34,452 nucleotides of DNA from Candidatus Adlerbacteria bacterium (GCA_903915735.1 CAIWUA010000073.1:1-34452); one strand, 5' to 3'. Positions 2,936 to 19,351 are shown, counted from the stretch's first letter. Numbers and translations: made by a program. Notes: a model not told the origin generated them from the letters alone.

Positions 2936-5900
2936 ATGGCTCTACGCCTGCATACGGTCTTTGGAGTATTTTTTGCTGTTTTGGCGCTCTATGGTGCACC
3001 CTTGTTTGTCGCGCACGCGGCGTGGGATCATACTCCCTATGCCGCCGGTCAAACCCTCAACCCCGAGTGCGGGCCAACCGACGAAAACTGCACCGTTAAT
3101 ACTAATTATTTTTCGCAGCCGGTAGGGTTTGCCACCACAACGCCCGCGGCGACGGTAGAGATAGCGGGCTCGGGCAGGGGCAACACCTTTTTGGGCAGCG
3201 GTAGTTCGCTGTTAAACATTGATGCGGCCAATGAGGGTCCGTGGGGGCTCACCTTCCAAAACGATGTTGCCGGCATGGGCAACGAAGTGGGATTTTATCT
3301 CGGCAATGACGGGACATTCCACCTGAGCGACAATATTGGCCACTTTCTTTTTAACGCGTTTCAAAACGGCAACGTAACGCTCGCTCAGTACGGCGGCAGG
3401 GTGGGTGTCGGCACCAGCAACCCCCAAAGCACGCTCGATGTCGGCGGCGACATCGGGATCTCAGGATATAACCGCTATCTCAACTTTAATGTCGATAATT
3501 TTGGTGTCGGCTCGGGCGGCTTTGGCTTGCGCGACAACGGGGGCACCATCCAATACAAAAACCTCGGCGGCAGCTGGACCGACCTCAGCCAAAGCGCCTG
3601 GGAGACCAACGGCAGCGGGATCGACTATGGCGGCGGCAGTGTTGGCATTGGTACCACCGAACCTAAAACAACCCTCACGGTCAACGGCGCGCTCTCGACG
3701 CTTTTGGAGGGCGATGTATTTAAGCAATATGACCCCACCACCGGGGAAGGGAATCTTTACCCGCTGCTTGGCCGCTATTTTGACGAAAGTGGGAGCCCAT
3801 ATAGCGGTATGACTTTCCTCTTTGGCTCCGGCCCTAGCGCTGCGGTTGGTATAGAAAAGCCGGGCGGAGACAAAGTAAATCTCTTCCGCGTGCGCGCGGA
3901 CAACAGCACCTTTACCGGCAATGTCGGGATAGGCACCACTAACCCGACATCCAAGCTCGATGTGGTAAGTATGCCCGGCACCGATGTGGGCGACTCGGTC
4001 GCCTCGTTTACCTCAAACGACACTTGGCAGTCTGGGTTTACCGTCTCCAACACATCCTCCGAGGCCGCGTGGTCCTTTATGGTCGGTGGAGACACAAACA
4101 ACTACAGCGGTGTGGATGTGGGGAACTTTGGTTTTTATAACGCAGCGTCGGGCAACTTTCCGTTTATCATGCAGCGCAGCTCCAACAATGTTATTCTCAC
4201 GCGAGACAACGGCCGGGTGGGTATCGGCACCTCAAACCCCAACGCCAAGTTGCAGGTTGATGGTCTTGTAACCGGCGACAGCTTTGGTGTCGGGCAAAAC
4301 ACCTGGCTCACCAACAGCGCGCCGTGGTACGGCATTGGCCTCAGCGACCTGTCGCTGCCGCGCACCGAGGATGCCGGGCGCGCCGTGCAGGTGGCGGGCT
4401 ACGGCGGGCTCAACTTTATTACCTCGGGCGGGCAGATGGTGCTCAACGACCAAGGCAAGGTAGGTATCGGCACCAACGACCCGCAATCGACGCTCGACGT
4501 CAACGGCGACATCCGTATAACCGGCAGTGACCACCGACTCTACTTCTCCGACGGTTCGTCGATGTGGACCTCTTCGAGCACCAACGCCAGCGGTGTCGAC
4601 AGCGAGGGCGACATCAACTTTACCACCGGCGGGCAAATAAATTTGATTACCGGAGACGGCTTTGCAACGAGCTCAAAACTCACGGTCAAAAACAACGGCT
4701 GGATAGGCATCGGCACGCAAGACCCGACCTCGCCGCTTGATATTTATGATAACCAAACCGGCCAGCGCAATCTTTTAACGCTGCAGAGCTTTTTTGACGG
4801 CGGCGACCAGGGGCCGGGGATACTCTTCCGCGATACCAACAACCCGGGCGGTGACGGCGCGGCCGGTATCCGTGCGATTTCATCCGGCCAAGGCGAGGCG
4901 GGACTTGCATTTGATACCAACTACAGCGGGAGCCTCAACGAGGCGATGCGCATAGACTCTCGCGGCCGCGTGGGCGTCGGCACCAACAACCCCGACGAGA
5001 TGCTGCAGGTCAACGGGCGGGCTAGTGCCGACAGCTTTTCGGTAGGCCAAGCGACCGAGGATAATTTCAACAACTCGCCGTGGTATGGCATCGGGCAGAG
5101 CAACATAACGCTCCCTGGTACCGACTACGAGTTTGGGACAGCTGTGCAGGTTGCGGGCTACTACGGGCTCTTGTTCCAAGCGGCGGGAGGTCAAGCGGTG
5201 TTTAATCAGCAAGGCAACTTTGGCATTGGCACGACCGCTCCCGCGACGATGCTCGATGTAGCTGGCTCGGCGCGTCTTACCAGCACGACGGGCGACACCT
5301 ACCTTAACTTCGGCACGAGCACGACCGGTGCCGACGGCTACGGCGTACGCTTCCACGCTGGGGTGATGCAGTTTCGCAACAATGGCGGCGACTGGACCGA
5401 CCTTGGCACTGGCTACGGTACACCCACCACCACTATCAACATTGCGGGCCCCGGAGGCAACGATGGTCTCAAATTTTCGTCGACCTACAGCTCACCAACC
5501 GGTTGGGCGGGCAATGTGATCGGCTCATCCACCAACTATTTGTATGTACAAAACAACAACAGGGGTTTTGATGTCGTAGACATCACCAATCGCGCGCACC
5601 CGGTAAGGGTGGCGAGTTACCAAACCGGCTCGTCGTGGATTAACCAGTCCTTCTCGTTTGGGAGCACGGTGTATCTCATTGGCTATGACGGTCGGTATCA
5701 CCTCGAGATTATCGATGTGTCCGACCCGACCCACCCGGTAGAGACGGGCACCTACTACTCAACCAGCGCCGACCACGTATACCAAGGTGCCGCGTGGGGA
5801 GGCGAAGTGTATCTTAAAAACGACAACGGTTACATCGAGGCGGTTAATGTATCAAACCCGGCGTCTCCGCAGGTCGACGCTGTGATCCATGCGCACTCAG

Positions 5901-8900
5901 ATGACGGACCTTTTTGGAATCCTCCGCACGCGAGCGGCAACCGGCTCTTTGTGGCCGACTACAACGGTGACGTCGAGATATTTGACGTCACCGACCCGAC
6001 CGCGCCGGTGTGGAAGTCGAACTACCACTCGGCACAAGGGTGGGCCTATCACTACACAATCTCGGGTAATTATTTGTACGAAAACTTTAACAACTTTGAG
6101 GTGGTCGATATCCATGACCTCACCAGCCCGACCCTGGTGGCCACCTACAGCTCGCCGTCGTCATGGATAGACGCACCGACCGTGTCGGGGGCCTATGCCT
6201 ATGCCGAGAACAACAACAGCCAGCTCGAAGCCATTGATATCAGCAACCCTGCAGCACCCACCTTTGTAACTACTTACGCCTCGGCGAGCGGCTGGTTGAA
6301 CGGCTCTCCTTTTATTGACAATGGGTACTTGTACACAGAGAACAACAACAACCAATTAGAGGCCATCGACATCAGCAACCCGCACGTGCCCATTGCCGCG
6401 ACCTTTACCGGCGGGCGCGTGGGGGTGGGCACGCTGTCGCCCGATGCGGCGCTGTCGGTAGTAGGCACCGGCGGCAATGTGCCCGTGTTCAAATCACACT
6501 ACATCTCGCCCACTAACTATCTTAATACTCCCTTTGTACTCAACTCGATTGCGTATAGCGAAAACGATAACGGCGCGATAGAGATAATCGACGAGACCGA
6601 CCCGACGCACCCGGTACTTGATGCAACTTATGCCTCGACGACGGGATCGCTGCGCGTGCCTATGGCTGCCGGCAACGCACTGTATGCGGTCAATAACAGC
6701 GACGGCTCTATCGAGGTTGTAGATGTTACCAACAAATCGGCCCCAACCTACCTGACCTCGCTGGTGGGTCAAGAGGGCTCGACGTTTAATTACTTTACTA
6801 TCAGCGGGTCGCACCTATACGCGGTTGATACGGCGGGGAATCTTGAGATCTTTAACATCTCCGATCCTTCAAACATTACACTAGACGACGCGTTTACTGC
6901 GTCGACCGGCCTTGATTACAACAATGTTATTAGTGCTCAAGGCACGTGGGTCTACGTGCGCACAACTGACGAAGATATAGATATTATAGACGCCTCCACG
7001 CCGTCGGCCCCAACCGACGAGGGTACCTACAGCCCGCATACGGGCATCGTACGCTCTTTCTTTGCGGCCGATGGGGTGCTGTATATCCAAAACAGCAGCT
7101 ACAACATCGAGATAGCCGATCTCCAAACCCCGAGTAGTCCTGTCTATCGCTCAACCTACGATGTGCCGACCAATCTGTTTATCCGGTCCGGTGCCGAGGA
7201 GGAAAACCGCTTCCTTTACATCCCCGATAACGACTGCTCGATTGAAGTCGTCGATGTTAACGACCAGTATAATCCGCGGTTGGTGTCGGTGTACAAGGGG
7301 CCCAGCAACTGCGCAGGGAATGCTTTTGTGGACTCTAACAAGTTGTACGTAATAAACGGCAACGACCAGCTCGAAGTTGCCGACATCTCGAGTGTGCCGC
7401 ACCCCAGCAGTGCGGCCACCTTTGAGGATGGCCTGGTCGGCATCGGTACAAATACTCCGCACGCCACACTCGACGTCAACGGCAATGTCGCTCTCTCGGG
7501 CTACAACCGCTACTTTAACTTTAATGCCGACAACTCCGGTGTGGGCCAAAACGGCTACGGCTTCCGTGACAACAGCGGGACCATACAATACAAAAACGCG
7601 GGCGGCACGTGGAGCGACTTCTCTGCTCCGAGCGGCTGGGTGGCCGAGAGCGACGGCAGCACACGCTTTGGCTCGGGCACTTACACGCTGAGCGGCTTGC
7701 CGACCAAATCATCCGACATAACCGACGGACTCTTTCTTTACCCGGTTAATGTCAACAGCAACACCGACTGGCGCTACTATATCGACGACGACTCGACCGA
7801 CTCGTTGTCCTTTTATGGCAATAGCTGTGCTAGCGACTGTCACAACGCAAGTGCAGCATCGGTCATCATGCACCTCAACGCCTCGGGCGAAGTAGGCATC
7901 GGCACAAGCACGCCCGCCGCCAAGCTCGACGTGGCCGGGTCGGCGCGACTTATCGCCGACGGCGATGCGTATCTCAACTTTAACAGCACGACCAACTACG
8001 CGGGCGATACGATAGGCAACGGCGGCTACGGTATCCGCATGCACAACGGGGTGATGCAGTTTAGAAACGAGAGCGGCGACTGGACCGATATGGGCTCGGG
8101 TACCGGAAGTATTTCATCAACAACAGCGCTTACTCTTATCGGCACAACAACGCCGCCGGTTATCAGCGGCACTTCTACCTACGGCGATTGGCCGACCGCG
8201 GTGGCGATACAGGGCCACTATGCTTACAGCGTCAACTCAAACAGCGGGTCGTTTACCGTGACCGATATCACCAACCACAACAGTCCGGTGGTCGTCGATG
8301 TGATTACCGGGTTGGGGAGCGACTACGACTCGCCCGAGGACATCGCCGTGGCCGGGCACTATGCCTATGTGACCAGCGAAGGTAACGAACGACTGTATGT
8401 TGTCGACATATCAAATGCCGAAAATGTCTCGGTGGTGGGGTCGTACGACTTTTCAAGTTTGGGCAACGGGCCCGACCATATCAAAGTCGAGGGCTCTTAT
8501 GCGTATGTAACCGCGCCTAACGCCGGGCTCGCGGTGCTTAACATACAAAATCCTCTAAACATTACGCTCACCGGCTTTCTTAAGCTGCCGGGCGCCGATC
8601 CGTTGACGGTGCAAGGCTCGTACGTGTATGTCTCGGACGTAACCACCAATGATGTGTATGCCATTAATGTTGCCGACCCGGCGCACCCCGCTATTGTTGG
8701 CGGCATATCGGTGGCTTCTGCGTACGGACTCGATATGGCCGGCCGCTACTTGTATGTGGCCAGCAACAACTCCGGCGAGCTGACGGTCATTGATGCCGCC
8801 GATCCGTCGTCGCTCAGTTTTGTCACCTCGGTCGAGACAGACAACTATCCGGGGTTTGTAAAAATTGAAGGCAAGCGCGCGTATGTGAGCACCTCTAACG

Positions 8901-11900
8901 GTTTGGATGTCTTTGATATATCAGATCCGACGTCGCCCGTCTTTGTCAGTACCGCGCTCTCGGGCACGTATGTGGTTAATTTTGACACCGACGGGCAGTG
9001 GGGCTACGCGCTGGTTGAAGGCATTGGTGGCGCTTTGTTAACCGTGGACCTTGGTAGCTCGTATATCCAAAATCTTGCCGCCGGCGGGATCAAAACAACA
9101 TCGCTTACCATCGAGCACGCACTGAGCGCTCAAAGCGGCCTCTTCCAAAACGGGGTGTCGGTCGGCGGCAGTGTCTTGGCAAACGGCGGCATCTCGGCAA
9201 TGGGCCAGAGCAGCTTTGAGCGCATCGGGGTAGGCACCACCACCATGCGTGCCGGGCTCGACGTGGTAGGGAGCTCTAACGACCAAGTGGTCACGCTCAC
9301 CAGTGCGAGCGCAACTTCGACCGGCAACATTGTAGATATGGCCTGGGGCGATGGGGTGTTGGCAGCGGCCGAGGACGGCACGGTCACGATTTGGACCACC
9401 AGTGGTACTACGCTCCAGTGGCAAAGCACTATCACCGCGACGGATTCTATCAAAGCGGTTGCTATTGTCGGCTCGCTGCTCTTGGTGGGTGACGGCCGCT
9501 ATCTTAAAGCCTACGCTATAACCGACCCGACAAATCCCACATATCAAAACGAGGTCTACACCGGCGAGCAGATACGCGGCATCACAACATACGGCAATAT
9601 CGCCTATGTGGTTAACGACGCGTCTGTTATCGAGACCTACGATCTGGCCGTGCTTGTCGGCGGTTCGGACAACCCGTTCCTCGGCTATGCGTCGTTGAGT
9701 GGGACGCCGTATCATGTCAAGCTAAGTGCCGACGGAAATTATGCCTATGTCTCGGAGTGGGGCCGGGTGCAGGTGATAGATGTATCAAATCTAACCAGCC
9801 CGGTTAGTACCGGCGCATACGCTCCGGGTGACATCGGGGGCGGCGGTATAGCGGTTGGTAACGGCTATGCCTACACGACCCGCAACACCAGCGACGGCAA
9901 GAGTTTTGTCGTGCTCGATACCTCCGACCCAACGAACCCGGTGCCGGTCGGGTATGCCGATATAGGTATAGACCGCGAGTACACCGGTATGGTTGTTGTC
10001 GGCAGCACGGTCTATGTGTCCGACGGCGACCTCGACAGTGTATACGCTATTAACGTTTCTAAACCTACCCATCCGGTGGTGGTGGGACACAGCCCGACAC
10101 AAAGTTCCTACAATCGCGCGATTGCCACCGACGGCAGTGGCAACCTCTTTGTGGGCGAGTTTGGCACGCTCGAGGGCTTCTCGACGTCGGCGCAATCGCT
10201 CGCGGCATTGTTTATGAACGGCAATGTGGGCATCGGCACCAGCCAACCGCAGGCGCAGCTCGAAATTAGCGGGCAAGGTTCGGGCAACTTCTTTGGCGAC
10301 CCGACCTTGTTGGCTATCCATACTCAAGACGGCACGCCGTGGGGCATTGCGTTTGTTAACGACGCGGCCGGCTCTAACATCGGCTTTGGAGAGTTCCTTA
10401 CGAACGACGGCACGCTTGTTTTTGAAAAGGGGGACGACATGAACAATTTGTCGCTGACCCAGGACGGTCTTATGGGTATCGGCACGCGCACCCCCGACGC
10501 AAAATTGACGATTGCAAACGGTGGCATCCACCTGACCAACACGGGCGACAACTACATTAATTTTGGCGAAGCGCCGGGCGAGTTAACCGGTGCCGAAGGC
10601 TACGGTATCCGTATCCACAACGGCGCCATGCAGTTTAAAAACGAGGGCGGCGACTGGACCGACATGGGCTCGGGCGGCGGAGGCAACCTCAGTCTCAGCG
10701 GCAGCATGCTTACCACGACGCTTGGCACTACGACACAGTACACCGATGGTACCGGGGCTTTTGTAGACGGGACGACCGACCACGCGGTCATTGTGGGGCA
10801 AACTATTACTCCCGCCCACAACGGCATGTTGCAGTCGGTCGAGGCACTCATTCGCATGTTCGATGTCGACCACGATGGTCAGGTGATAGTAAAGATCTAC
10901 GATGATAACAACGGTACGCTGCTTGCCCAGGCCGATGCCCCGCAAGTTGCTCCGTATATGTATGGCGCGCCGGCAGACACGACGTGGACCTTTAACGCGT
11001 CGCGTCTCATGTTGCAGGCGGGCCATACCTATGATGTCGAGTTTGTGTCGCTCTCGAACAACGACATCATGCTCTTTGAGGCGGACGGCGACGCGTATGC
11101 CGGCGGCAATATGTATGACGGCCCGTACCACGGTTCGCTCACGCCGCAACCCGGCAACGACCTGCAGTTTAACGTCGTATACGGCGGACAGACAGGCGGC
11201 CTGGTCGAGGTGGGCTCGCTTGCCTCGCCGCTCTCGCTCAACCTACTCGGTTCGACCACGCCGATGACACTCGCTTCGACCAGTGTCGGGCAAACGCCGT
11301 GGGGTATGACCGTTGCGGGCGGGTGGGGCTATGTCGCCAATGGCGAAAGCGGCACGCTGTCGGTACTCTCACTCAGCAACCCCTTGCATCCGCAAACCGT
11401 TGCGACACTCTCGGGGTTTGGACAAAGTGGCGGCCCGACCGAGGTGCCCGAGGATGTCGCCGTGCAGGGCTCATACGCCTATGTCACCTCCGAGGAAGAG
11501 AGCCGGCTGTACGTGGTCGATATCTCCAACCGCGCCAAGCCCGCGATAATCTCTTCGGTCGAGTTTGGCGACTTGGGCGGCTCAAATTCGCCCGACCATG
11601 TGGTCGTGCAAGGCCAATATGCTTACGTGGCCGACGAGGACCAAGGGCTCGTGATTATCAACATCGGCGACCCCAAGCACCCGACCATCGCCAGCCGCAT
11701 GGGGAACAACGGCAGCCCCGAGCAGCTTGCGGTGCGCGGCAAATATGTCTATATCACCAACACCGACCAAAAAGGGCTCGATGTCGTCGATGTCTCTGAC
11801 CCGAGTGCGCCGCACATCGTGGGTCATGATGATATAGCGGGCGGGCCGTACGGCGTGACACTCGATAGTCGCTATGCCTATGTGACGCTTGGCATGAGTG

Positions 11901-14900
11901 ATAGCGGCGGACAATTAGTTGTGGTCGACATTGCCGACCCGACCGCGCCGCACACAGTCGCGACGCTTCCAATAGCACAAGACGGCGCCAACTTTGTGGC
12001 GATACAGGGCAAACTTGCCTACGTTACCGGCGACAACGGTCTCTCGCTTGTCGACATCTCCGACCCGACCAACCCGCAACTTGTCGGCACCAGTAACGAA
12101 AAGGTCGCGCTGGGAGACATGGCTATTGAGGGCCGCTACCTCTTTGCCACCCAGATGGACAGCGGCTCGGTCTATGTGCTCGACCTTGGCGGCAGCTATA
12201 TCCAACAACTCGAGGCCGGCGGCATCAAGGCCGGCAGTCTGTCGGTGACGGGCAACTTCTCGGCACAAAGCGGATCGATTGCCGGCGCACTCAGTGTGGG
12301 CGGCTTGACCGCGCAAGGGCCGGCGGCTATCCACTCGCTGCTGCAGGTATTTGGCAATGGCGGCACCAACGGCGCACGCTACACAGCGACCTACCGCTCG
12401 ACCGAAGGCCTCCAAGTACCGAGCACCGCCACCACGGTTACCGGTCGGCAATTGGCGCTCTTTGGCACCGATGGCGACGGGTTCGAGATTATCGATGTGA
12501 CCAACCCCAACAGCCCCGTTATAAAAGGCCGCTACAGCTCGGTCAACTCGCCGTTTAGCGACCCGTATGTGGCGGGCACCACGGCGTATGGAGCAAACAC
12601 CAACGGCAACCTCGAGGCGGTCGATATTACCGACCCGACCAACCCGCAGTTTGGGTCGGAGACAGCGGGCGATGTGCCGCTCGTTTCGGTGGCGGGGGTT
12701 GAGGCCAGCACGACGGCATCGTCGACTATCTACGCGATCGATGCTGCCGGCAACCTCGAGAAGCTGTATGCCGACCCGTCCGACGGGACGTCGGTCGCCT
12801 ACGACTCTACGTATGTGGCGAGCCATGCGCTCGAGCAGGTGCAGTTTGATTTTGCGCACGAGATGGCCTATGGCGTCAACAGCAACCATCAAATTGAAGT
12901 GGTAAACCTTGTCAATATGTCGAACATTACCTCCTTCGAGGGCTTGGCGCCGATCTTTAAGATCGCTCTCTCAGGCAATTATGTATACGCCACCAACAAC
13001 TACGGTCAACTCATGTCGCTCCACAGTAACAGTAACGGCGACCTCCAACAGGTTGGCATCTACAATACGACCAATGCGTGTATCACGACCGGTACGCCGC
13101 CCGTTATCCACGGTTCGTACGCTTTTGTTTTGACCTGCAACAATGCATTTGAAATCGTAGACATCTCTAACCCGGTGCAGATGAGTTATGTGGGCACCTA
13201 TGCCTCGCCGACCGGCAGCCTCAACTATGCGGCGATTATCGGCAACAACCTGTACTCGATCGACGACAATAATAATCTCGAGATTATCGATGCCTCAAGC
13301 CCCAAGCCGCCGGTGGCTGCAACCTTTACCGGCGGGCACGTGGGCGTCGGCACCACGAACCCCGGCGCGGCGCTGTCGGTAGTGGGCGAGGGCGGCAGTA
13401 CGGTGACGACGCTCGGGCAGTACCAGTCGCCGAGCACCGACCTCAGCAGCAACTACATGGTCGACGGCGACTATGTCTACGCGCTTAACAACAACAGCGC
13501 CATCGAGATAATCGACGAGCGCGACACGGCACGCCCGCAGCGTGTGGCGGTTATCACCGACAAAAACTTCAGTCAAATCGACGTGCAGGGCGACCTGCTT
13601 GCCGCGACGGCGAGCGACGGCAGCGGTCTGCGCCTGTATGACACTGCGGACAAGGCGCACCCGATAGCCACCAGCACGATAGCGGCCAACGATACCGGAG
13701 ATAGTGGTCACTTGGTCTGGCCGGTTATTGTGGGCAACCGGCTGTTTGCGATAGACACAGGCAACAATCAGCTCGAGGCGTTTGATATCTCTGACCCGTC
13801 TAACCCCAGCTACTTGGGCAACTACGCCAGCGTGAGCGGGGACGGGCTCTCTACCAGCTTCCGTATTGCGGTCCAGGGTACGGTGGCCTATGTCTACAAC
13901 CAGGACAATCAAATCGAGCTTATCGATGTGCACGACCCAACAGACATGGCACCACTGTCGACTTGGACCGGCGGCTCGGGCGCGAGCGGCGACTTTAGCG
14001 TGTCGGGGCAGTACCTCTTCCAAAGAAACAACGGCGGCAACCTTGAGATTGTCAGCGTGGCCAACCCGGCGAGCCCGAGCGCTATCACCACGTTTTATCC
14101 CGATAGCTCCTTGGGCACTCTCACTAAGAGTATGTTCTACCAGGGTCATCTGTATGTCCCCGACGACTGCCAAATAGACGTACTCGACCTGACCGACCCC
14201 TCGAGCCCGGTACGCGTCGACACCTACCACTCGCCGAGTAGTTGCGCCAGCGAGCCGAACATAAGCCAAAACGGCAAAGCCTTTGTGTACAACGATAGCG
14301 ACGGCATCGAGGCTATCAACATCGCCGGCATAAGCCAAAAAAATATGGCCGCCACCTTTGTTAACGGCCTCGTGGGTATCGGCACCGACAACCCCGACGC
14401 GCAGCTCGATGTCAGTGGTACCTTTGCGGCGAGCGGCGCACTGCGTTTTGGTTCGGGTACCTATTGGATGAACAATGTCCCGACGCTCGCCACCAACGCC
14501 AACGAAGGGCTCTTTATGTACCCGACCCAAACCGGTGGCGGCAACAGCACAGACTATCAATGGATTATCGACGGCGGGTTTGGCGGCTCGATGTCCTTCT
14601 GGGGGAGTATACCGTTTGGCAACCACAACGCGCAGGATACTAGCCTCATCATGTACATGGATGCGTACAACAACCGCGTGGGTATCGGTACCAGCAACCC
14701 GCACGCATTGCTCGATGTCAACGGCGACGTAGCAATATCGGGTTACAACCACTACATCAACTTTAATGCAGACGGCTCCGGTGTCGGGAGTGGCGGCTAC
14801 GGCATTCGCGACACCGGCGGCACCATGCAGTTTAAAAACAGTGGCGGCACGTGGACCAATTTTGGCGCAGGCACCCTGCAGTGGACCGACGACGGTATGG

Positions 14901-16624
14901 GTAACATCGCCTACAACAGTGGCAGTGTCTCTATCGGCGGCAACGTCTCTATTGGCAACGGCGCGGTGAGCTACGACTCGGGCTCGGGCGTGACCGCCAT
15001 CAGCAACCTCTCTATCGGTGCGCTTAACTTCCCGCTTGATGCGGGCATGGTGCAGTGGGTAGACCTGCCGGTATCGGCCGCCCCCGCCGGCACCGAAGAG
15101 GGTTACTCGGCCATGATCGGCGGTGCCGAAGTGCTCACGGTGTACGGCGAGTCAAACGGCGACGGCACCGTGGGCAACCTGCGTGTGGGCATCGGCACCA
15201 CCACGCCGGTGGCGGTACTCGACGTCGAGTCGACCACCTCGTTTGCATTGTTGCCACGCATGGACAACCTCGAGCGCGACGCGATTAGTTTGCCGCAGAC
15301 CGGCGGGCTTATCTTTAACACCGCAAGCTCGACGCTGCAATACTTTGCAACCTCGACACCGGGCACCGTCGAGACCATCGGCACTTTGGCCGCCGATCAG
15401 GCTGTGTATGACGGCCCGGCCGAGGGTCAAACATACACCACGACCGCCGCCGGGCGACTCACGCAAATCGAAGGCTCCTTTGCAATACGCACGGCGCCCG
15501 ACTCGGTGGTGGCCAAAGTGTACGACGCGCCCAACGGCAAGCTCTTGGGTGTGTCGGACAATGCGGTGTCCGACAGCGACGCCACCGAGTTTACCTTTGT
15601 CGACGGCACGTGGACCTTTAACAACTGGGCGGTGATGCTAAAGGCAAACACGAGCTACTACATCGAATTTACCGCGGTCGGCAACAACAATCTATATTTC
15701 GACACGACGCAAAATTATCCCGGCTCGGGCGGTGTGTACGCCGGCGGCAAGCACTACTCGGGCCCGAGCGGCTCGGTATCGGCGCATGACGACATGGACC
15801 TCAACATGCGCTTGACCTACGGCGGTTCGACGGGCGGATGGTCTGATGTCGGCTACGGCGGCGCCTTCGAGTGGAGTAATGCCGGTGGCACGGGCGCGAT
15901 GTCGTATGTCGGCGGCAATGTCGGTATCGGCACCACCTCGCCGTGGACTACCTTTGCGGTCCAAGGCACCGTGGCTATGAGCGGCCTGTCGACAGAGACC
16001 GGCATGAGCGGCGCGGCGCTGTGTCTAACGGCTTCGGGCGAAGTCGTCGTTAACTCGGGCGTACAAGACTGTACGCTGTCCTCCGAGCGCTACAAACACA
16101 ATATAGAAGGCCTCGATATTTCCGGCACTTCGACCATTATGGAGCTTTCGCCGTCGTCGTTTGTATACAACAGCGACACGGCATCGACGACGCATTGGGG
16201 CTTTATCGCCGAGGCGCTCGCGTCGACCAGCCCCGAACTTGCGCAGTACGGGCTCGACGGCAAACCGCAGTCGGTCAACCAAATCGGCATACTCGCGGTG
16301 GTCGTCAAGGCGGTGCAAGAGCTCACGGCTACGATCCAAGGATTTGCCGAACGCTTTACCTCCAAAGAGGTCGACACACAAAAGTTGTGCGTCGGCGACA
16401 CCTGCGTGACACAAGATCAGCTCAAGGCACTCTTGCAGGCGGCGGGCTCGTCGTCGACCCCTGCGGCACCAAGCGGTGCGGCGACCTCGAGCGACTCAAC
16501 CTCTGGCACCGACGACTCGGCAAGCTCTACGCCGGCCGATACCGAAGCGTCTTCGACGCCACCTGTCGCGCCTACTGACACAGACTCTGCAAGCACCTCT
16601 CCCGACGCCACACCGGCCAATTAA
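2936..16624 (+). CDS. Giant secreted tail-fibre-like surface protein (4,562 aa). Order: signal peptide, GIGT-collar stalk modules, seven LVIVD-like beta-propeller blocks, two paralogous beta-sandwich-like domains, S74-type C-terminal intramolecular chaperone, acidic S/T/P tail
   Basis: One uninterrupted 13,689-nt ORF. The N-terminus MALRLHTVFGVFFAVLALYGAPLFVAHAAW is a signal peptide. GGAGGGG (2917-2923) lies upstream, and there is no in-frame alternative start after the TAA at 2912. A coherent repeat architecture runs throughout (see sub-features). Confidence 0.92.
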   Translation: MALRLHTVFGVFFAVLALYGAPLFVAHAAWDHTPYAAGQTLNPECGPTDENCTVNTNYFSQPVGFATTTPAATVEIAGSGRGNTFLGSGSSLLNIDAANEGPWGLTFQNDVAGMGNEVGFYLGNDGTFHLSDNIGHFLFNAFQNGNVTLAQYGGRVGVGTSNPQSTLDVGGDIGISGYNRYLNFNVDNFGVGSGGFGLRDNGGTIQYKNLGGSWTDLSQSAWETNGSGIDYGGGSVGIGTTEPKTTLTVNGALSTLLEGDVFKQYDPTTGEGNLYPLLGRYFDESGSPYSGMTFLFGSGPSAAVGIEKPGGDKVNLFRVRADNSTFTGNVGIGTTNPTSKLDVVSMPGTDVGDSVASFTSNDTWQSGFTVSNTSSEAAWSFMVGGDTNNYSGVDVGNFGFYNAASGNFPFIMQRSSNNVILTRDNGRVGIGTSNPNAKLQVDGLVTGDSFGVGQNTWLTNSAPWYGIGLSDLSLPRTEDAGRAVQVAGYGGLNFITSGGQMVLNDQGKVGIGTNDPQSTLDVNGDIRITGSDHRLYFSDGSSMWTSSSTNASGVDSEGDINFTTGGQINLITGDGFATSSKLTVKNNGWIGIGTQDPTSPLDIYDNQTGQRNLLTLQSFFDGGDQGPGILFRDTNNPGGDGAAGIRAISSGQGEAGLAFDTNYSGSLNEAMRIDSRGRVGVGTNNPDEMLQVNGRASADSFSVGQATEDNFNNSPWYGIGQSNITLPGTDYEFGTAVQVAGYYGLLFQAAGGQAVFNQQGNFGIGTTAPATMLDVAGSARLTSTTGDTYLNFGTSTTGADGYGVRFHAGVMQFRNNGGDWTDLGTGYGTPTTTINIAGPGGNDGLKFSSTYSSPTGWAGNVIGSSTNYLYVQNNNRGFDVVDITNRAHPVRVASYQTGSSWINQSFSFGSTVYLIGYDGRYHLEIIDVSDPTHPVETGTYYSTSADHVYQGAAWGGEVYLKNDNGYIEAVNVSNPASPQVDAVIHAHSDDGPFWNPPHASGNRLFVADYNGDVEIFDVTDPTAPVWKSNYHSAQGWAYHYTISGNYLYENFNNFEVVDIHDLTSPTLVATYSSPSSWIDAPTVSGAYAYAENNNSQLEAIDISNPAAPTFVTTYASASGWLNGSPFIDNGYLYTENNNNQLEAIDISNPHVPIAATFTGGRVGVGTLSPDAALSVVGTGGNVPVFKSHYISPTNYLNTPFVLNSIAYSENDNGAIEIIDETDPTHPVLDATYASTTGSLRVPMAAGNALYAVNNSDGSIEVVDVTNKSAPTYLTSLVGQEGSTFNYFTISGSHLYAVDTAGNLEIFNISDPSNITLDDAFTASTGLDYNNVISAQGTWVYVRTTDEDIDIIDASTPSAPTDEGTYSPHTGIVRSFFAADGVLYIQNSSYNIEIADLQTPSSPVYRSTYDVPTNLFIRSGAEEENRFLYIPDNDCSIEVVDVNDQYNPRLVSVYKGPSNCAGNAFVDSNKLYVINGNDQLEVADISSVPHPSSAATFEDGLVGIGTNTPHATLDVNGNVALSGYNRYFNFNADNSGVGQNGYGFRDNSGTIQYKNAGGTWSDFSAPSGWVAESDGSTRFGSGTYTLSGLPTKSSDITDGLFLYPVNVNSNTDWRYYIDDDSTDSLSFYGNSCASDCHNASAASVIMHLNASGEVGIGTSTPAAKLDVAGSARLIADGDAYLNFNSTTNYAGDTIGNGGYGIRMHNGVMQFRNESGDWTDMGSGTGSISSTTALTLIGTTTPPVISGTSTYGDWPTAVAIQGHYAYSVNSNSGSFTVTDITNHNSPVVVDVITGLGSDYDSPEDIAVAGHYAYVTSEGNERLYVVDISNAENVSVVGSYDFSSLGNGPDHIKVEGSYAYVTAPNAGLAVLNIQNPLNITLTGFLKLPGADPLTVQGSYVYVSDVTTNDVYAINVADPAHPAIVGGISVASAYGLDMAGRYLYVASNNSGELTVIDAADPSSLSFVTSVETDNYPGFVKIEGKRAYVSTSNGLDVFDISDPTSPVFVSTALSGTYVVNFDTDGQWGYALVEGIGGALLTVDLGSSYIQNLAAGGIKTTSLTIEHALSAQSGLFQNGVSVGGSVLANGGISAMGQSSFERIGVGTTTMRAGLDVVGSSNDQVVTLTSASATSTGNIVDMAWGDGVLAAAEDGTVTIWTTSGTTLQWQSTITATDSIKAVAIVGSLLLVGDGRYLKAYAITDPTNPTYQNEVYTGEQIRGITTYGNIAYVVNDASVIETYDLAVLVGGSDNPFLGYASLSGTPYHVKLSADGNYAYVSEWGRVQVIDVSNLTSPVSTGAYAPGDIGGGGIAVGNGYAYTTRNTSDGKSFVVLDTSDPTNPVPVGYADIGIDREYTGMVVVGSTVYVSDGDLDSVYAINVSKPTHPVVVGHSPTQSSYNRAIATDGSGNLFVGEFGTLEGFSTSAQSLAALFMNGNVGIGTSQPQAQLEISGQGSGNFFGDPTLLAIHTQDGTPWGIAFVNDAAGSNIGFGEFLTNDGTLVFEKGDDMNNLSLTQDGLMGIGTRTPDAKLTIANGGIHLTNTGDNYINFGEAPGELTGAEGYGIRIHNGAMQFKNEGGDWTDMGSGGGGNLSLSGSMLTTTLGTTTQYTDGTGAFVDGTTDHAVIVGQTITPAHNGMLQSVEALIRMFDVDHDGQVIVKIYDDNNGTLLAQADAPQVAPYMYGAPADTTWTFNASRLMLQAGHTYDVEFVSLSNNDIMLFEADGDAYAGGNMYDGPYHGSLTPQPGNDLQFNVVYGGQTGGLVEVGSLASPLSLNLLGSTTPMTLASTSVGQTPWGMTVAGGWGYVANGESGTLSVLSLSNPLHPQTVATLSGFGQSGGPTEVPEDVAVQGSYAYVTSEEESRLYVVDISNRAKPAIISSVEFGDLGGSNSPDHVVVQGQYAYVADEDQGLVIINIGDPKHPTIASRMGNNGSPEQLAVRGKYVYITNTDQKGLDVVDVSDPSAPHIVGHDDIAGGPYGVTLDSRYAYVTLGMSDSGGQLVVVDIADPTAPHTVATLPIAQDGANFVAIQGKLAYVTGDNGLSLVDISDPTNPQLVGTSNEKVALGDMAIEGRYLFATQMDSGSVYVLDLGGSYIQQLEAGGIKAGSLSVTGNFSAQSGSIAGALSVGGLTAQGPAAIHSLLQVFGNGGTNGARYTATYRSTEGLQVPSTATTVTGRQLALFGTDGDGFEIIDVTNPNSPVIKGRYSSVNSPFSDPYVAGTTAYGANTNGNLEAVDITDPTNPQFGSETAGDVPLVSVAGVEASTTASSTIYAIDAAGNLEKLYADPSDGTSVAYDSTYVASHALEQVQFDFAHEMAYGVNSNHQIEVVNLVNMSNITSFEGLAPIFKIALSGNYVYATNNYGQLMSLHSNSNGDLQQVGIYNTTNACITTGTPPVIHGSYAFVLTCNNAFEIVDISNPVQMSYVGTYASPTGSLNYAAIIGNNLYSIDDNNNLEIIDASSPKPPVAATFTGGHVGVGTTNPGAALSVVGEGGSTVTTLGQYQSPSTDLSSNYMVDGDYVYALNNNSAIEIIDERDTARPQRVAVITDKNFSQIDVQGDLLAATASDGSGLRLYDTADKAHPIATSTIAANDTGDSGHLVWPVIVGNRLFAIDTGNNQLEAFDISDPSNPSYLGNYASVSGDGLSTSFRIAVQGTVAYVYNQDNQIELIDVHDPTDMAPLSTWTGGSGASGDFSVSGQYLFQRNNGGNLEIVSVANPASPSAITTFYPDSSLGTLTKSMFYQGHLYVPDDCQIDVLDLTDPSSPVRVDTYHSPSSCASEPNISQNGKAFVYNDSDGIEAINIAGISQKNMAATFVNGLVGIGTDNPDAQLDVSGTFAASGALRFGSGTYWMNNVPTLATNANEGLFMYPTQTGGGNSTDYQWIIDGGFGGSMSFWGSIPFGNHNAQDTSLIMYMDAYNNRVGIGTSNPHALLDVNGDVAISGYNHYINFNADGSGVGSGGYGIRDTGGTMQFKNSGGTWTNFGAGTLQWTDDGMGNIAYNSGSVSIGGNVSIGNGAVSYDSGSGVTAISNLSIGALNFPLDAGMVQWVDLPVSAAPAGTEEGYSAMIGGAEVLTVYGESNGDGTVGNLRVGIGTTTPVAVLDVESTTSFALLPRMDNLERDAISLPQTGGLIFNTASSTLQYFATSTPGTVETIGTLAADQAVYDGPAEGQTYTTTAAGRLTQIEGSFAIRTAPDSVVAKVYDAPNGKLLGVSDNAVSDSDATEFTFVDGTWTFNNWAVMLKANTSYYIEFTAVGNNNLYFDTTQNYPGSGGVYAGGKHYSGPSGSVSAHDDMDLNMRLTYGGSTGGWSDVGYGGAFEWSNAGGTGAMSYVGGNVGIGTTSPWTTFAVQGTVAMSGLSTETGMSGAALCLTASGEVVVNSGVQDCTLSSERYKHNIEGLDISGTSTIMELSPSSFVYNSDTASTTHWGFIAEALASTSPELAQYGLDGKPQSVNQIGILAVVVKAVQELTATIQGFAERFTSKEVDTQKLCVGDTCVTQDQLKALLQAAGSSSTPAAPSGAATSSDSTSGTDDSASSTPADTEASSTPPVAPTDTDSASTSPDATPAN
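3394..5410 (+). other. N-terminal stalk region of the giant ORF, containing eight collar motifs (G-x-V-G-I/V-G-T-x-x-P-x-x-x-L-D-V) and two 'QY/F-K/R-N-x-G-G-x-W-T-D' modules
   Basis: Read from the translation: GRVGVGTSNPQSTLDV, GSVGIGTTEPKTTLTV, GNVGIGTTNPTSKLDV, GRVGIGTSNPNAKLQV, GKVGIGTNDPQSTLDV, GWIGIGTQDPTSPLDI, GRVGVGTNNPDEMLQV, GNFGIGTTAPATMLDV. There is also a duplicated SPWYGIG...AVQVAGY segment. Confidence 0.6.
5510..6405 (+). repeat. LVIVD-like beta-propeller block 1 (7 blades, type A) in the giant ORF
   Basis: Blade cores: FDVVDITNRAHPV, LEIIDVSDPTHPV, IEAVNVSNPASPQ, VEIFDVTDPTAPV, FEVVDIHDLTSPT, LEAIDISNPAAPT, LEAIDISNPHVPI. Period is about 43 aa. Boundaries are approximate. Confidence 0.6.
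6485..7423 (+). repeat. LVIVD-like beta-propeller block 2 (7 blades, type A)
   Basis: Blade cores: IEIIDETDPTHPV, IEVVDVTNKSAPT, LEIFNISDPSNIT, IDIIDASTPSAPT, IEIADLQTPSSPV, IEVVDVNDQYNPR, LEVADISSVPHPS. Confidence 0.6.
8170..9075 (+). repeat. LVIVD-like beta-propeller block 3 (7 blades, type B with G-x-Y-A-Y-V strands)
   Basis: GHYAYSVN..FTVTDITNHNSPV, GHYAYVTS..LYVVDISNAENVS, GSYAYVTA..LAVLNIQNPLNIT, GSYVYVSD..VYAINVADPAHPA, GRYLYVAS..LTVIDAADPSSLS, GKRAYVST..LDVFDISDPTSPV. The block ends LLTVDLGSSYIQNLAAGGIK. Confidence 0.6.
9290..10190 (+). repeat. Divergent propeller-like block 4 (about 7 blades, type C)
   Basis: YLKAYAITDPTNPT, VQVIDVSNLTSPV, FVVLDTSDPTNPV and VYAINVSKPTHPV, plus degenerate blades (VTIWTTSGTT, VIETYDLAVL, LFVGEFGTLE). 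Confidence 0.45.
10720..11190 (+). other. Domain X, copy 1: about 155-aa beta-sandwich-like domain of unknown function (its pattern is reminiscent of DUF4082-type domains)
   Basis: GQTITPAHNGMLQSVEALIRMFDVDHDGQVIVKIYDDNNGTLLAQADAP...TTWTFNASRLMLQAGHTYDVEFVSLSNNDIMLFEAD...YAGGNMYDGPYHGS...NDLQFNVVYGG. It is paralogous to 15380-15826. Confidence 0.4.
11270..12210 (+). repeat. LVIVD-like beta-propeller block 5 (7 blades, type B; paralogue of block 3)
   Basis: GGWGYVANG..LSVLSLSNPLHPQ, GSYAYVTS..LYVVDISNRAKPA, GQYAYVAD..LVIINIGDPKHPT, GKYVYITN..LDVVDVSDPSAPH, SRYAYVTL..LVVVDIADPTAPH, GKLAYVTG..LSLVDISDPTNPQ. The block ends VYVLDLGGSYIQQLEAGGIK. Confidence 0.6.
12400..13327 (+). repeat. LVIVD-like beta-propeller block 6 (7 blades, type A)
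   Basis: FEIIDVTNPNSPV, LEAVDITDPTNPQ, LEKLYADPSDGTS, IEVVNLVNMSNIT, a degenerate blade LMSLHSNSNGDLQ, FEIVDISNPVQMS, LEIIDASSPKPPV. Confidence 0.55.
13410..14358 (+). repeat. LVIVD-like beta-propeller block 7 (7 blades, type A)
   Basis: IEIIDERDTARPQ, LRLYDTADKAHPI, LEAFDISDPSNPS, IELIDVHDPTDMA, LEIVSVANPASPS, IDVLDLTDPSSPV, IEAINIAGISQKN. Confidence 0.55.
15380..15826 (+). other. Domain X, copy 2 (paralogue of 10720-11190)
   Basis: GQTYTTTAAGRLTQIEGSFAIRTAPDSVVAKVYDAPNGKLLGVSDNAV...GTWTFNNWAVMLKANTSYYIEFTAVGNNNLYFDTT...YAGGKHYSGPSGS...MDLNMRLTYGG. Its conserved positions are in the same order as in copy 1. Confidence 0.4.
16079..16440 (+). other. Peptidase S74-type C-terminal intramolecular chaperone / autoproteolysis domain of the giant ORF
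   Basis: S-S-E-R-Y-K-H-N-I-E-G-L (codons from 16079) fits the S-D-x-R-x-K-x-x-I Ser/Lys dyad signature of tail-fibre and endosialidase chaperone domains. It is followed by FVYNSD...HWGFIAEALAS..PEL...VNQIGILAVVVKAVQEL and LCVGDTCVTQDQLKALL. Confidence 0.7.
16441..16621 (+). repeat. Low-complexity acidic Ser/Thr/Pro/Asp tail (about 60 aa) at the extreme C-terminus of the giant ORF
   Basis: AGSSSTPAAPSGAATSSDSTSGTDDSASSTPADTEASSTPPVAPTDTDSASTSPDATPAN. Confidence 0.8.
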
Positions 16625-16627
16625 TAT

Positions 16628-19351
16628 ATGAAGCGCTTTTGGCAATTTCTCCCGCTCATTGTCGCGAGCTTTTTAATCATCTCGGCGGCATCGGCATCGG
16701 TCGTGATGGGGGTCTTGCGCTCAAACCAAGGAGACATAACAACCGGCTTGGTCGACCACTACACCATGGACCATGTCGACTTTAGCGGGTCGACGCTCCA
16801 CGATGTGGCGGGCGGCGCCGACGCAACCTTGGTCGGTTCGGCCGGCACGACGGTCGGCGGGCCGCTGGGGCAGGGGTACTTATTTTCGGGGGGTACCACC
16901 TTTGACACGACGCGCATCGTGCAGGACGACTTTACTATTTGTGCGTGGTTTAAAACGACCAGCCGTGGCATCTACACGAACCACTGGCAGAGCATGGCGA
17001 TTTACGACTCGGAGCAGCCGGGGCTTGCACAAGATTTTAGTTTGGGACTCGACTCCAACGGCAGGCTGATGTTTGGTGACGGCAGCGTAAGCCAAGGAGA
17101 CTTTAGTTTTAGTGGTCAGAGTACCGTCAACACCGGGCTATGGGTGTTGGGATGCGCGACGCGCCAAAAAAGCACCGGCGCGATTACACTCTACGTCAAC
17201 GGCGCGCCCGACGGCAGCGGCACGGGGGCGATTGGCACGTCGCTTACCTCAAATGCTTCGGCGCGCATTGGTGGCGGATTTGACGGGGCAGCCAACTTTA
17301 CGGGCACGATCGACGACGTACGTGTATACAACCGCGTTCTGTCGCCGCGGGACATCCAAACGCTTTACAGCGTGCCGGTGCCGGCCTCAATCCCGGGGCT
17401 CCGGCTGTGGCTGCGGGCGGACGAAATCCCGGGTCTCTCCGACGGCTCCGAGCTCACGGCGTGGGACGACTCAAGCGGACACAACAACTCGTTTACGCCG
17501 CACCCCGGCGATTCGGGGCCGACCTATCACACCGGCGAGTTGGGCGGCCTGCCGTCGCTGATGTTTAGTACGAGCCAATCGCTGCAAAACACCGGGCTCA
17601 ACCTCAACTCGAGTTGGACCATACTCTACGTCACAAGACTGCTCGGCACGACCAACGGCCGCACGCTGCAAGGCGGCAGCAATAATTGGCTCTTGGGTAC
17701 ATGGGGCACGTATGTCAACTCGGCATACTACAACAACGACATCCATTTAGTGAGCGATGCGGCCGACACGCAGTGGCGGCTGTATGAAGGTACCGGCAGT
17801 CGCGCGCAGGCGCATGGCACCTTTTATGTTAACGGCCGGCTCGTTGCGCAATCGAGCACGGCCTTTGAGGGGCCGGTGGGGTTAGGACTCAACAGCGGCG
17901 CTTTTAACGGCGAGCGCTCGGGTATGGAGGTGAGCGAGGTGCTGGCCTACGACCACCCGCTGACGCAAGTCGAGCGGGTACGGCTCGAGCAGTATCTTAA
18001 AACTAAATACGGGTTGGATATTGTGTCCGAAAAGCCCGCGACCGCCGCGCAGGTTAACAGTGTCTCGACTGATGGGTTGGTGGCGTACTGGCCGCTCGAC
18101 GATGCGTCGACGCCTATCAGGGACAAAAGCGGCAATGGATACGACGGTACATTGGGGGGCATTTTTGCTCCGGCTACGGGCAAAATAAATAAAGCACTCT
18201 ACTTTAACGGCGGCACGCTTATCGCCACCACGCTGCCGCTGCCGCGCTCGTACACCAAAGCGGCGTGGGTCAAGCTAAGTTCGTGTGTCGGTGCCAACAA
18301 CTTTATCTCGAGTGTCGACGACAGCGGGACGGCCTTTTGGGCGCCAGATTCCTTTGGGTGCAAATTGAGCGCCGGTAATCAAGGGACATGGGATATTGTT
18401 CAAGACTCGGTGGGGCTGACGCCGGGTGTGTGGTACCACGTGGCGGTAACGTACGACCCCGACCTCAACGGCGGCACCTTGAGTCTGTATAAAAACGGCG
18501 TCTTGGTAAGTGCTGCCACTAACATATCGCCGGCATCGAGTCCGTATGTGCAGCTGGGCGGCCACGACAACGGCAATAATCTCAACGGGTACATGGACGA
18601 CGTGCGCATCTACAACCGCGCGCTCTCGGCCGCCGAAATTAAAAAGCTCGCCTCCTTTGTGCAGACAACTCTCAATGACTCGACAAACGCGCGCTTTACC
18701 TCGGGGCTTGTCGGCCACTGGAGTTTTGACGGCGGCGACATTAATTGGGCTGCGCCAAGCGTCACCGACAGTTCGGTGTCGGGGCACAATGGCGCGCTCG
18801 TCGGCTTTTCGAAATCGAGCGTCGCGGCCGGCAAGGACGGCCAGGCGCTGCGGTTTAACGGCAGCAATTATATTGCCGGCGGCGACGCGTCGTTGCTAAG
18901 CGGCAATCATCCGCGTACGGTGAGTGTGTGGGTCAAGCCCGACCAATTGCCGGCCACTAACGAAGCCGGAGTGTTGTTTAATTACGGCACAGCCGACACA
19001 GACCAAGCGTTTGGTATCGGGCTTATAAACATCGAGGGGGTACAAAAGGTGCGTGTCTTTGGTTGGGGTGATGATTATGATGTGACGGTAACGCTCCCGG
19101 TGCATCAATGGACATTGCTTGTTGCCGAGTATGACGGGTCCCACTCTAACTTGTTTGTTAACACGACATTTGCAAGCGGGCATTATCCGGACAACAGCAA
19201 CGTCCGCCCTTCTTTATATACGGTCCTCAACCAGTATGAGATTGGGCGCAATATTGCTGGGGGCGACTATTATCAAGGGCTTATAGACGACGTACGTGTG
19301 TATAACCGGGCTCTTGCGCCGAGTGAGATACAAGCTTTATACTTACTGTAA
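16628..19351 (+). CDS. Secreted protein with four tandem LamG / concanavalin-A-like lectin domains (907 aa)
   Basis: Signal/TM segment MKRFWQFLPLIVASFLIISAASA. Four roughly 200-aa units each end in a LamG_3-type motif: GTIDDVRVYNRVLSPRDIQTLY, SEVLAYDHPLTQVERVRLEQYLKTKYGL, GYMDDVRIYNRALSAAEIKKLA, GLIDDVRVYNRALAPSEIQALY. The ATG is 3 nt after the giant ORF stop. Confidence 0.88.
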   Translation: MKRFWQFLPLIVASFLIISAASASVVMGVLRSNQGDITTGLVDHYTMDHVDFSGSTLHDVAGGADATLVGSAGTTVGGPLGQGYLFSGGTTFDTTRIVQDDFTICAWFKTTSRGIYTNHWQSMAIYDSEQPGLAQDFSLGLDSNGRLMFGDGSVSQGDFSFSGQSTVNTGLWVLGCATRQKSTGAITLYVNGAPDGSGTGAIGTSLTSNASARIGGGFDGAANFTGTIDDVRVYNRVLSPRDIQTLYSVPVPASIPGLRLWLRADEIPGLSDGSELTAWDDSSGHNNSFTPHPGDSGPTYHTGELGGLPSLMFSTSQSLQNTGLNLNSSWTILYVTRLLGTTNGRTLQGGSNNWLLGTWGTYVNSAYYNNDIHLVSDAADTQWRLYEGTGSRAQAHGTFYVNGRLVAQSSTAFEGPVGLGLNSGAFNGERSGMEVSEVLAYDHPLTQVERVRLEQYLKTKYGLDIVSEKPATAAQVNSVSTDGLVAYWPLDDASTPIRDKSGNGYDGTLGGIFAPATGKINKALYFNGGTLIATTLPLPRSYTKAAWVKLSSCVGANNFISSVDDSGTAFWAPDSFGCKLSAGNQGTWDIVQDSVGLTPGVWYHVAVTYDPDLNGGTLSLYKNGVLVSAATNISPASSPYVQLGGHDNGNNLNGYMDDVRIYNRALSAAEIKKLASFVQTTLNDSTNARFTSGLVGHWSFDGGDINWAAPSVTDSSVSGHNGALVGFSKSSVAAGKDGQALRFNGSNYIAGGDASLLSGNHPRTVSVWVKPDQLPATNEAGVLFNYGTADTDQAFGIGLINIEGVQKVRVFGWGDDYDVTVTLPVHQWTLLVAEYDGSHSNLFVNTTFASGHYPDNSNVRPSLYTVLNQYEIGRNIAGGDYYQGLIDDVRVYNRALAPSEIQALYLL

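Follow-up and report, generated by a model that had tools for sequence, protein, structure and literature searches.

Seven predicted LVIVD beta-propellers set in the shaft of a giant, putatively secreted tail-fibre-like protein of a Candidate Phyla Radiation bacterium

The DNA analysed here, hereafter the window, is a stretch of 34,452 nucleotides from Candidatus Adlerbacteria bacterium (GCA_903915735.1 CAIWUA010000073.1:1-34452), and it contains a giant open reading frame (ORF) of 4,562 codons on the + strand (2936..16624), to which all features described below belong unless otherwise stated. The frame stays open over 13.7 kb, with no stop codon or frame break, and holds the whole of the repeat array that concerns us: seven blocks of LVIVD-type units, each block ∼300 aa, which together occupy window positions 5492-14326 and which we designate B1 to B7. 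The blocks are preceded, separated and followed by shaft-like sequence with a recurrent collar motif, and the chain ends in a Peptidase_S74 domain and a short tail. Its N-terminus reads as a Sec signal peptide (or anchor), with a hydrophobic core in aa 1-28 (2936..3019) and the boundary falling between AHA and AW, as judged from the translation without a predictor.

The repeat units belong to the LVIVD family. On the giant protein the Pfam LVIVD model (PF08309) reaches 379.7 bits (E = 1.8e-116), where 20.2 is the cut-off, and the NCBIfam choice-of-anchor B model TIGR04312 scores 135.6 bits against a curated cut-off of 100, with its best stretch at aa 1250-1493, in B2; the latter is a domain-level model of LVIVD propellers and carries no functional assignment. 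The units are tandem, of the ∼42-aa type, with the core hydrophobic-x-[VI]-x-D-[VI]-S-x-P-x-x-P. A unit hidden Markov model (HMM), seeded with 24 units of the giant protein picked by regular expression and iterated on the same protein, finds 46 units in total, 43 of them at an independent E-value (i-E) below 0.01, with one stray outside the blocks (aa 4332-4347). Seven units are placed per block, giving 49 with a mean length of 43.3 aa and a median of 44. Weak units were checked singly with the self-trained HMM against 100 shuffles per unit, and units B2u6, B4u3, B6u4, B6u5 and B7u7 (block and unit number) proved significant, so that 45 of the 49 are individually supported by sequence alone. 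The final unit is short (29-36 aa) in B3, B4, B5 and B7, where it ends past the third strand, as is expected of a ring-closing blade. A preliminary description of this DNA, made from the sequence alone, had named the repeats as LVIVD-like, counted 49 units of about 43 aa with a core of this kind, and put the seven blocks at 5510-14358; the Pfam match, the unit count and the unit length all agree with it, and the block coordinates differ by no more than ∼30 nt.

The blocks follow one another at unequal intervals. B1 (aa 853-1160; 5492..6415) has seven strong units, each with E between 1e-14 and 1e-20 by the self-trained HMM, and a collar linker ('ATFTGGRVGVGTLSPDAALSVVG'; 6416..6505) joins it to B2 (aa 1191-1498; 6506..7429), which has seven units and contains the best stretch of the TIGR04312 match. 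A shaft spacer with two collar motifs (aa 1499-1747; 7430..8176) leads to B3 (aa 1748-2045; 8177..9070), composed of six strong units and a short seventh with the end 'VDLGSSYIQNLAAGGIK', and a linker with a degenerate collar ('ERIGVGTTTMRAGLDV'; 9071..9277) then leads to B4 (aa 2115-2421; 9278..10198), the most degenerate block, with five significant and two weak units. The next spacer (aa 2422-2782; 10199..11281) contains two collar motifs and a ∼180-aa domain without a family. B5 (aa 2783-3085; 11282..12190) has seven units and ends in 'VLDLGGSYIQQLEAGGIK'; beyond its linker (12191..12406), B6 (aa 3158-3467; 12407..13336) has strong units 1, 2, 6 and 7, weak but significant units 4 and 5, and a unit 3 that is not significant. 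A second collar linker ('ATFTGGHVGVGTTNPGAALSVVG'; 13337..13429) precedes B7 (aa 3499-3797; 13430..14326), again with seven units. Thus a single collar motif stands at B1/B2 and at B6/B7, linkers of 65-70 aa separate B3 from B4 and B5 from B6, and collar-bearing spacers of 250-360 aa separate B2 from B3 and B4 from B5, much as the preliminary description had it in delimiting the blocks by collars or linkers.

For the fold of the blocks we relied on structure prediction (AlphaFold2) of the two blocks with the least certain unit count, B4 (modelled as aa 2105-2430) and B6 (aa 3150-3475). A joint B3+B4 query left B4 almost uncovered, and single-block alignments were used instead, each of 127 rows, made up of the six remaining blocks plus 120 homologues with a single propeller. 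The B4 model has a mean predicted local distance difference test (pLDDT) of 84.9, a predicted template modelling score (pTM) of 0.83, 28 beta-strands and almost no helix. In a Foldseek search of the PDB it matches 7-bladed propellers, namely beta-TrCP/FBXW11 at a template modelling score (TM) of 0.75-0.77, Cdc20 at 0.73-0.74, G-beta at 0.70-0.73 and EED at 0.71-0.73, with the LVIVD-like phosphotriesterase 5hrm at rank 17; the 8-bladed Tako8/Ika8 designs and BamB reach just 0.59-0.63. As modelled, then, B4 is a 7-bladed propeller of seven four-stranded blades (7 x 4 strands). We had to consider a different fold, such as a beta-helix, or a different number of blades per block; for B4, AlphaFold2 and Foldseek gave neither, and a beta-helix for the repeat region is ruled out by top structural matches that are all propellers at TM 0.75-0.77.

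In B4 one strand (aa 2119-2122) precedes unit 1, and the last unit has just three; this strand order indicates the '3+1 velcro' pattern of closure, and a strand-like segment lies just upstream of all seven blocks (e.g. 'GLKFSSTYSSP', 'VPVFKSHYISP' and 'TVTTLGQYQSP'). The B6 model is less complete (pLDDT 70.1, pTM 0.68), with blades 1-2 and 5-7 at 85-97; all its Foldseek matches are propellers, at TM only 0.4-0.5 and with 7- and 8-bladed forms mixed. B6 is thus a propeller, and its full-length 30% identity to B1 suggests that its blades also number seven. By sequence, the best PDB relative is Sb-PTE (5hrm), which we take to be a 7-bladed propeller as well.

All seven blocks can be aligned end to end, with 19-28% identity to B1 and 19-36% between blocks. 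BLAST pairs them as paralogues: B1 with B6 (30% over 308 aa), B2 with B7 (31% over 304 aa) and B3 with B5 (36% over 307 aa), the last two also being the nearest blocks to B4. When a profile of B1, B2, B6 and B7 is set against one of B4, B3 and B5, hhalign returns a probability of 99.3% (E = 1e-20) over columns 13-294 versus 16-306; this profile match is full-length, with no one-blade shift, and places the blocks in register. B1-collar-B2 and B6-collar-B7 have the linker 'ATFTGG[RH]VGVGT..P.AALSVVG' in common, from which we conclude that a two-propeller module was duplicated, and the exit motif 'DLG[GS]SYIQ.L.AGGIK' is common to B3 and B5. Because repeats at the DNA level are just 60-80% identical and confined to motif cores, the array is old and diverged, and the same figures rule out a recent tandem amplification of blocks. 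A cysteine pair between blades 6 and 7 is kept in two blocks, as Cys1434/Cys1459 in B2 (7235-7312) and Cys3745/Cys3770 in B7 (14168-14245).

Outside the propellers the chain consists of mutually similar modules, each with the collar motif 'G.VGIGT..P...L.V', of which there are 19 copies. Eight of these, at a spacing of ∼80-95 aa, lie in the N-terminal shaft (aa 29-852; 3020..5491), and four in the C-terminal shaft (aa 3798-4381; 14327..16078). The motif fits the capping-loop consensus V-G-G/N-pi-x-x-P-x-x-x-L that Caulton et al. 2024, who solved Bdellovibrio mosaic adhesive trimer (MAT) fibres, found to be common to S74 and non-S74 fibres (PMC10769870). Among PHROG tail-fibre families the N-terminal shaft matches phrog_9942 (E 6e-20) and phrog_18345 (E 1.5e-14), and in the PDB it weakly matches the Bdellovibrio MAT fibre Bd2133 (8ond, E 7.6e-4). 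Pfam finds no match even at E <= 1 on the shaft or on the two ∼180-aa spacer domains, and the C-terminal 764 aa, searched against PDB sequences, gave noise only. The two ∼180-aa domains are similar to each other and lie at window ∼10733-11278 and 15353-15865 (aa ∼2600-2780 and ∼4140-4310), the second copy being in the C-terminal shaft; they could be further binding modules.

At the C-terminal end of the shaft stands an S74 intramolecular-chaperone and auto-cleavage domain (16079..16435), whose Peptidase_S74 'chaperone of endosialidase' match (PF13884, aa 4382-4435) scores 29.3 bits, with 22 as the cut-off. In S74 auto-cleavage the catalytic residues are the Ser and Lys of a motif S-x-x-R-x-K, which here is intact, with Ser4382 and Lys4387 in 'SSERYKHNI'. 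Against the tail-fibre chain 8jov the S74 region gives E 1.1e-3, with 'SSERYK' aligned on 'SDERLK'. It is followed by a C-terminal tail (16436..16621) that by its translation is of low complexity and rich in Ser, Thr, Pro and Asp. All 14 cysteines of the giant protein fall into seven close pairs, which fits an extracellular protein and suggests disulfides. Taken together, the signal peptide, the 19 collars, the tail-fibre PHROG matches and the C-terminal S74 domain with its Ser and Lys lend support, at the level of sequence, to a surrounding chain with the hallmarks of an S74-type trimeric fibre, and so uphold the fibre context put forward in the preliminary description.

To gauge how common this architecture might be, we searched the seven-block profile against 1.84 billion representative proteins, and obtained matches to 66,846 at E <= 1e-3 and to 20,891 at E <= 1e-30. 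Figures on the architecture of these relatives refer to the best 150 of the 66,846 matches. Most of them run to 1,000-7,200 aa and have 4-17 matched stretches per chain. Block sizes, determined with the same unit HMM, peak at 6 and 7 units (121 and 120 blocks, respectively), and a second peak at 13-14 reflects pairs of propellers in direct succession. Such chains include P0126 (blocks of 7, 7, 7, 7, 7 and 6 units), P0152 (five blocks of 7), P0137, P0144, P0132 and P0121 (nine blocks). Collars together with an S74-like end are also present in P0126, P0131 and P0189, and an auto-chaperone motif, either S74-like or 'ADYAEYF', is found by motif in 15 of the 150. 'ADYAEYF' lies near the end of eight multi-propeller giants (P0125, P0138, P0149, P0154, P0175, P0186, P0191 and P0194); we take it to be a G2-type (phi29 gp12-like) auto-chaperone motif, matched by regular expression only and without HMM confirmation. 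The names borne by relatives include 'tail fiber domain-containing protein [Patescibacteria group bacterium]', 'beta-propeller fold lactonase family protein [Candidatus Magasanikbacteria]' and 'hypothetical protein'. There is no close orthologue among the matches, the best match to the C-terminal 764 aa having 49% identity over 19% of the query, and the single-propeller relatives of B1, mostly of 300-540 aa, are ∼30% identical to it. Judged by these profile matches the architecture is common in sequence space, and the suggestion in the preliminary description that such an array is unusual has to be withdrawn. In the literature searched we found no description of this multi-propeller architecture, and LVIVD turns up there essentially only in the 2004 description and in passing mentions.

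Several known systems resemble the giant protein in part. LVIVD-repeat proteins at large (PF08309; COG5276; TIGR04312), whose first description is that of Adindla et al. 2004 (PMC2447325), are cell-surface proteins of bacteria and archaea with the same ∼42-aa repeat and the same core motif, but close relatives of B1 mostly have length enough for one propeller, whereas here seven propellers are interleaved with shaft. The S74-subgroup MAT fibres of Bdellovibrio bacteriovorus (PMC10769870; 8ond, Bd2133) are likewise secreted cellular fibres with a repeated capping-loop motif and a C-terminal S74 domain. They differ in length (∼1,000 aa as compared to 4,562 aa), in having one adhesive domain at the C-terminal tip rather than seven globular domains internal to the shaft, and in belonging to a deltaproteobacterial predator rather than to a Candidate Phyla Radiation (CPR) bacterium. 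By the number and position of its globular domains and by its length, our protein falls outside the strict Bdellovibrio MAT family, whose definition also includes a conserved N-terminal domain, and its only similarity to Bd2133 is in the beta-helix shaft; the word 'propeller' occurs 0 times in that paper (PMC10769870), which has no MAT fibre with a propeller.

S74 phage tail fibres and tailspikes (K1F endosialidase and T5 pb1; PHROGs 9942 and 18345) have in common with it an S74 domain bearing the Ser/Lys motif, as well as the shaft homology, and some uncultured phage proteins also pair a propeller with S74; here, by contrast, the gene is chromosomal and without phage genes, the chain is far longer, and the propellers are seven. 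One such phage protein is BFVD A0A6J5KKT3 (uncultured Caudovirales phage, 756 aa), which combines an auto-processing chaperone annotation with a propeller matching the B4 model at TM 0.62; propeller-plus-S74 fibres therefore occur in phages too. The metagenomic LVIVD giants (e.g. P0126, P0152, P0137, P0144, P0131, P0189, P0160/P0305 and P0178) are alike in having blocks of 6-7 units, 4-9 blocks per chain, the exit motif 'DLGG.YIQQL.AGG', collar motifs and, in some, S74-like or G2-type ends. Their named members are from Patescibacteria. None is a close orthologue, and all are uncharacterised and automatically annotated. Oscillospiraceae also have giant extracellular proteins with many 7-bladed propellers (West-Roberts et al. 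2023, bioRxiv 10.1101/2023.11.21.568195), but these are of another repeat family, RCC1, and are described there as one domain repeated from end to end with no interleaved shaft.

The genomic neighbourhood is that of a cellular chromosome. The neighbours of the giant gene are a GroEL fragment, LemA, an HtpX-like M48 peptidase, MurJ and LepA. The LepA is 84-85% identical to that of metagenome-assembled genomes (MAGs) labelled Kaiserbacteria, Nomurabacteria or Saccharibacteria (Paceibacteria-type), and all 80 of its 80 matches are to Patescibacteria/Parcubacteria-type or unclassified MAGs. These housekeeping neighbours and the kinship of LepA lead us to conclude that the window is chromosomal DNA of a CPR bacterium and not of a phage. 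Among the eight neighbouring ORFs no phage family was found with PHROG, save for generic lectin-domain matches of the downstream gene. No LVIVD ORF occurs at the 80 lepA loci of related MAGs, within flanks of up to 10 kb per side, and synteny is therefore unusable.

The downstream gene (16628-19351, + strand, 907 aa) starts 4 nt past the stop of the giant ORF, and its product carries three lectin domains of the Laminin_G_3/ConA-like type (Pfam E 2e-74), along with a weak TafC-like match; the gene is probably co-transcribed with the giant ORF and probably encodes a second surface or binding protein. The window begins within groEL (69-851, + strand), of which the C-terminal 260 aa only are included. 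Other public contigs have groES-groEL-lemA-M48 upstream of the giant gene and break inside it, and an exact look-up of the full giant protein found no database record. Farther downstream, two + strand ORFs (21147-21728 and 21425-22927), the second weakly PaaK/AMP-ligase-like, overlap by ∼300 nt in different frames, which could reflect a misplaced start, a frameshift or a genuine overlap. Antisense ORFs of up to 485 aa within 2936-16624 (e.g. 13295-14752, − strand) are in all likelihood no genes but shadow ORFs, the coding region here being GC-rich and repetitive.

Our preferred reading, to which we assign a probability of about 0.6, is that seven paralogous LVIVD propellers are set at intervals in the shaft of a secreted, tail-fibre-like CPR protein that forms a putative trimeric surface adhesion fibre; in the domain architecture alone our confidence is well above that figure. 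As in characterised S74 fibres, the S74 domain would template a homotrimeric shaft and then cleave itself off at Ser4382, freeing the last ∼180 residues together with the Ser/Thr/Pro-rich tail. Each propeller would form a domain of its own, with both termini brought together in blade 7 by velcro closure; the chain would then enter and leave at the same point, leaving the propeller to hang sideways off the three-fold shaft. On a trimer, such lateral propellers would make seven stations of three, up to 21 per fibre. The propellers may serve as binding modules, and the stations probably differ in specificity, given that the blocks are only 19-36% identical; the most likely role of the fibre would be to attach the episymbiont to a host cell or surface polymer, adhesion being suggested by analogy with MAT and phage fibres. 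Support falls in the order of these steps, from S74 trimerization and cleavage through lateral propellers and binding modules to host attachment.

Several observations weigh against this reading. In MAT and phage fibres the binding domain is at the tip and not mid-shaft as here, the giant protein has no recognisable C-terminal anchor to keep it on the cell, and no LVIVD protein with a demonstrated ligand was found in the literature searched. Units B3u7, B4u1, B4u7 and B6u3 are indistinguishable from shuffled sequence; they are degenerate or ring-closing units, placed by spacing, by block-to-block alignment and, in B4, also by the model. That the ring closes by velcro and that N- and C-termini lie side by side is deduced from strand order only, in a predicted structure. 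The proposal of the preliminary description that all seven blocks are 7-bladed propellers accordingly stands on unequal footing: it holds for the B4 model, with its 28 strands and TM of 0.75-0.77; B6 is a propeller in which aa 3243-3330 (units 3-4) have pLDDT < 50; and for B1, B2, B3, B5 and B7 seven blades are predicted by homology, from seven units each and in-register profile alignment to B4.

We weighed other explanations of the same chain. It might be a monomeric surface protein, with propellers in a row like beads on a string, the collars serving as linkers and the S74 domain vestigial. Trimerization of the chain is after all our inference, the S74 match is modest at 29.3 bits, and most of the best 150 multi-propeller relatives have no recognisable auto-chaperone motif; that count, however, may be lowered by relatives that are truncated metagenome fragments, and an intact S74 Ser/Lys motif, 19 collars matching a loop that was defined on trimeric fibre structures, and a shaft matching tail-fibre PHROGs at E 6e-20 make a monomer unlikely in our view. 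A mainly structural role for the propellers, as spacers or protective coat, would leave binding to the ∼180-aa domains or to the downstream lectin-like protein. Several blades are indeed degenerate, two domains without family sit in the spacers, and the gene that follows has three ConA-like lectin domains, but divergence of the blocks to 19-36% identity within a conserved fold is in keeping with binding faces that have diversified, and propellers of extracellular proteins are typically binding modules; we consider this idea just as improbable as a monomeric chain. That the propellers are tethered enzymes, hydrolases or lactonases like Sb-PTE that attack the host envelope, is suggested by the phosphotriesterase propeller being the best PDB sequence match and by the automatic annotation of one relative as 'beta-propeller fold lactonase family protein'. 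The 5hrm alignment, however, spans generic blade motifs only, no catalytic or metal-binding residues were identified, and seven diverged copies of one enzyme in a chain would be odd, all of which makes an enzymatic array very unlikely.

The remaining alternatives concern the origin of the gene rather than the work of its product. The S74 domain, the tail-fibre PHROG matches and the existence of phage proteins with propeller and S74 would all suit a phage or prophage tail-fibre gene. Housekeeping genes nevertheless flank the giant gene on both sides and no other phage family was found among the eight neighbouring ORFs, on which grounds we reject prophage origin; since cellular S74 fibres are also established in Bdellovibrio, we give a phage gene a remote chance. 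The seven-fold array could in principle be an assembly artefact of a repetitive gene, as other public assemblies break inside it and the full protein has no database record. Blocks that are 19-36% identical in protein, and 60-80% identical in DNA at motif cores only, offer an assembler nothing to mis-join, though, and with the frame open for 13.7 kb and independent contigs showing the same gene start, we attach next to no weight to an artefact.

Whether the propeller-bearing adhesion fibre that we favor amounts to a new kind of organelle by which CPR episymbionts recognize hosts, with lateral binding modules arranged as seven three-propeller stations whose specificity differs from station to station, rather than a single binding domain at the tip as in phage and MAT fibres, is a more speculative proposal, which we offer tentatively and ourselves find doubtful. 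If true, one fibre would combine high avidity with a built-in repertoire of ligands, and the many related multi-propeller giants of Patescibacteria would be versions of this one device. With parts that are not new and an architecture met widely in databases, the finding is in our view useful rather than startling. It draws attention to a large class of uncharacterised proteins that are publicly labelled just 'hypothetical' or 'tail fiber domain-containing', and it would extend the idea of the S74/MAT fibre from a single adhesive tip to many domains within the shaft. According to one account (PMC11623550), Patescibacteria in cultivation live in attachment to other microbes, and the means by which they recognize hosts are largely unknown; for such host recognition, a secreted fibre of 4,562 aa that would bear up to 21 diversified propellers is a concrete candidate.

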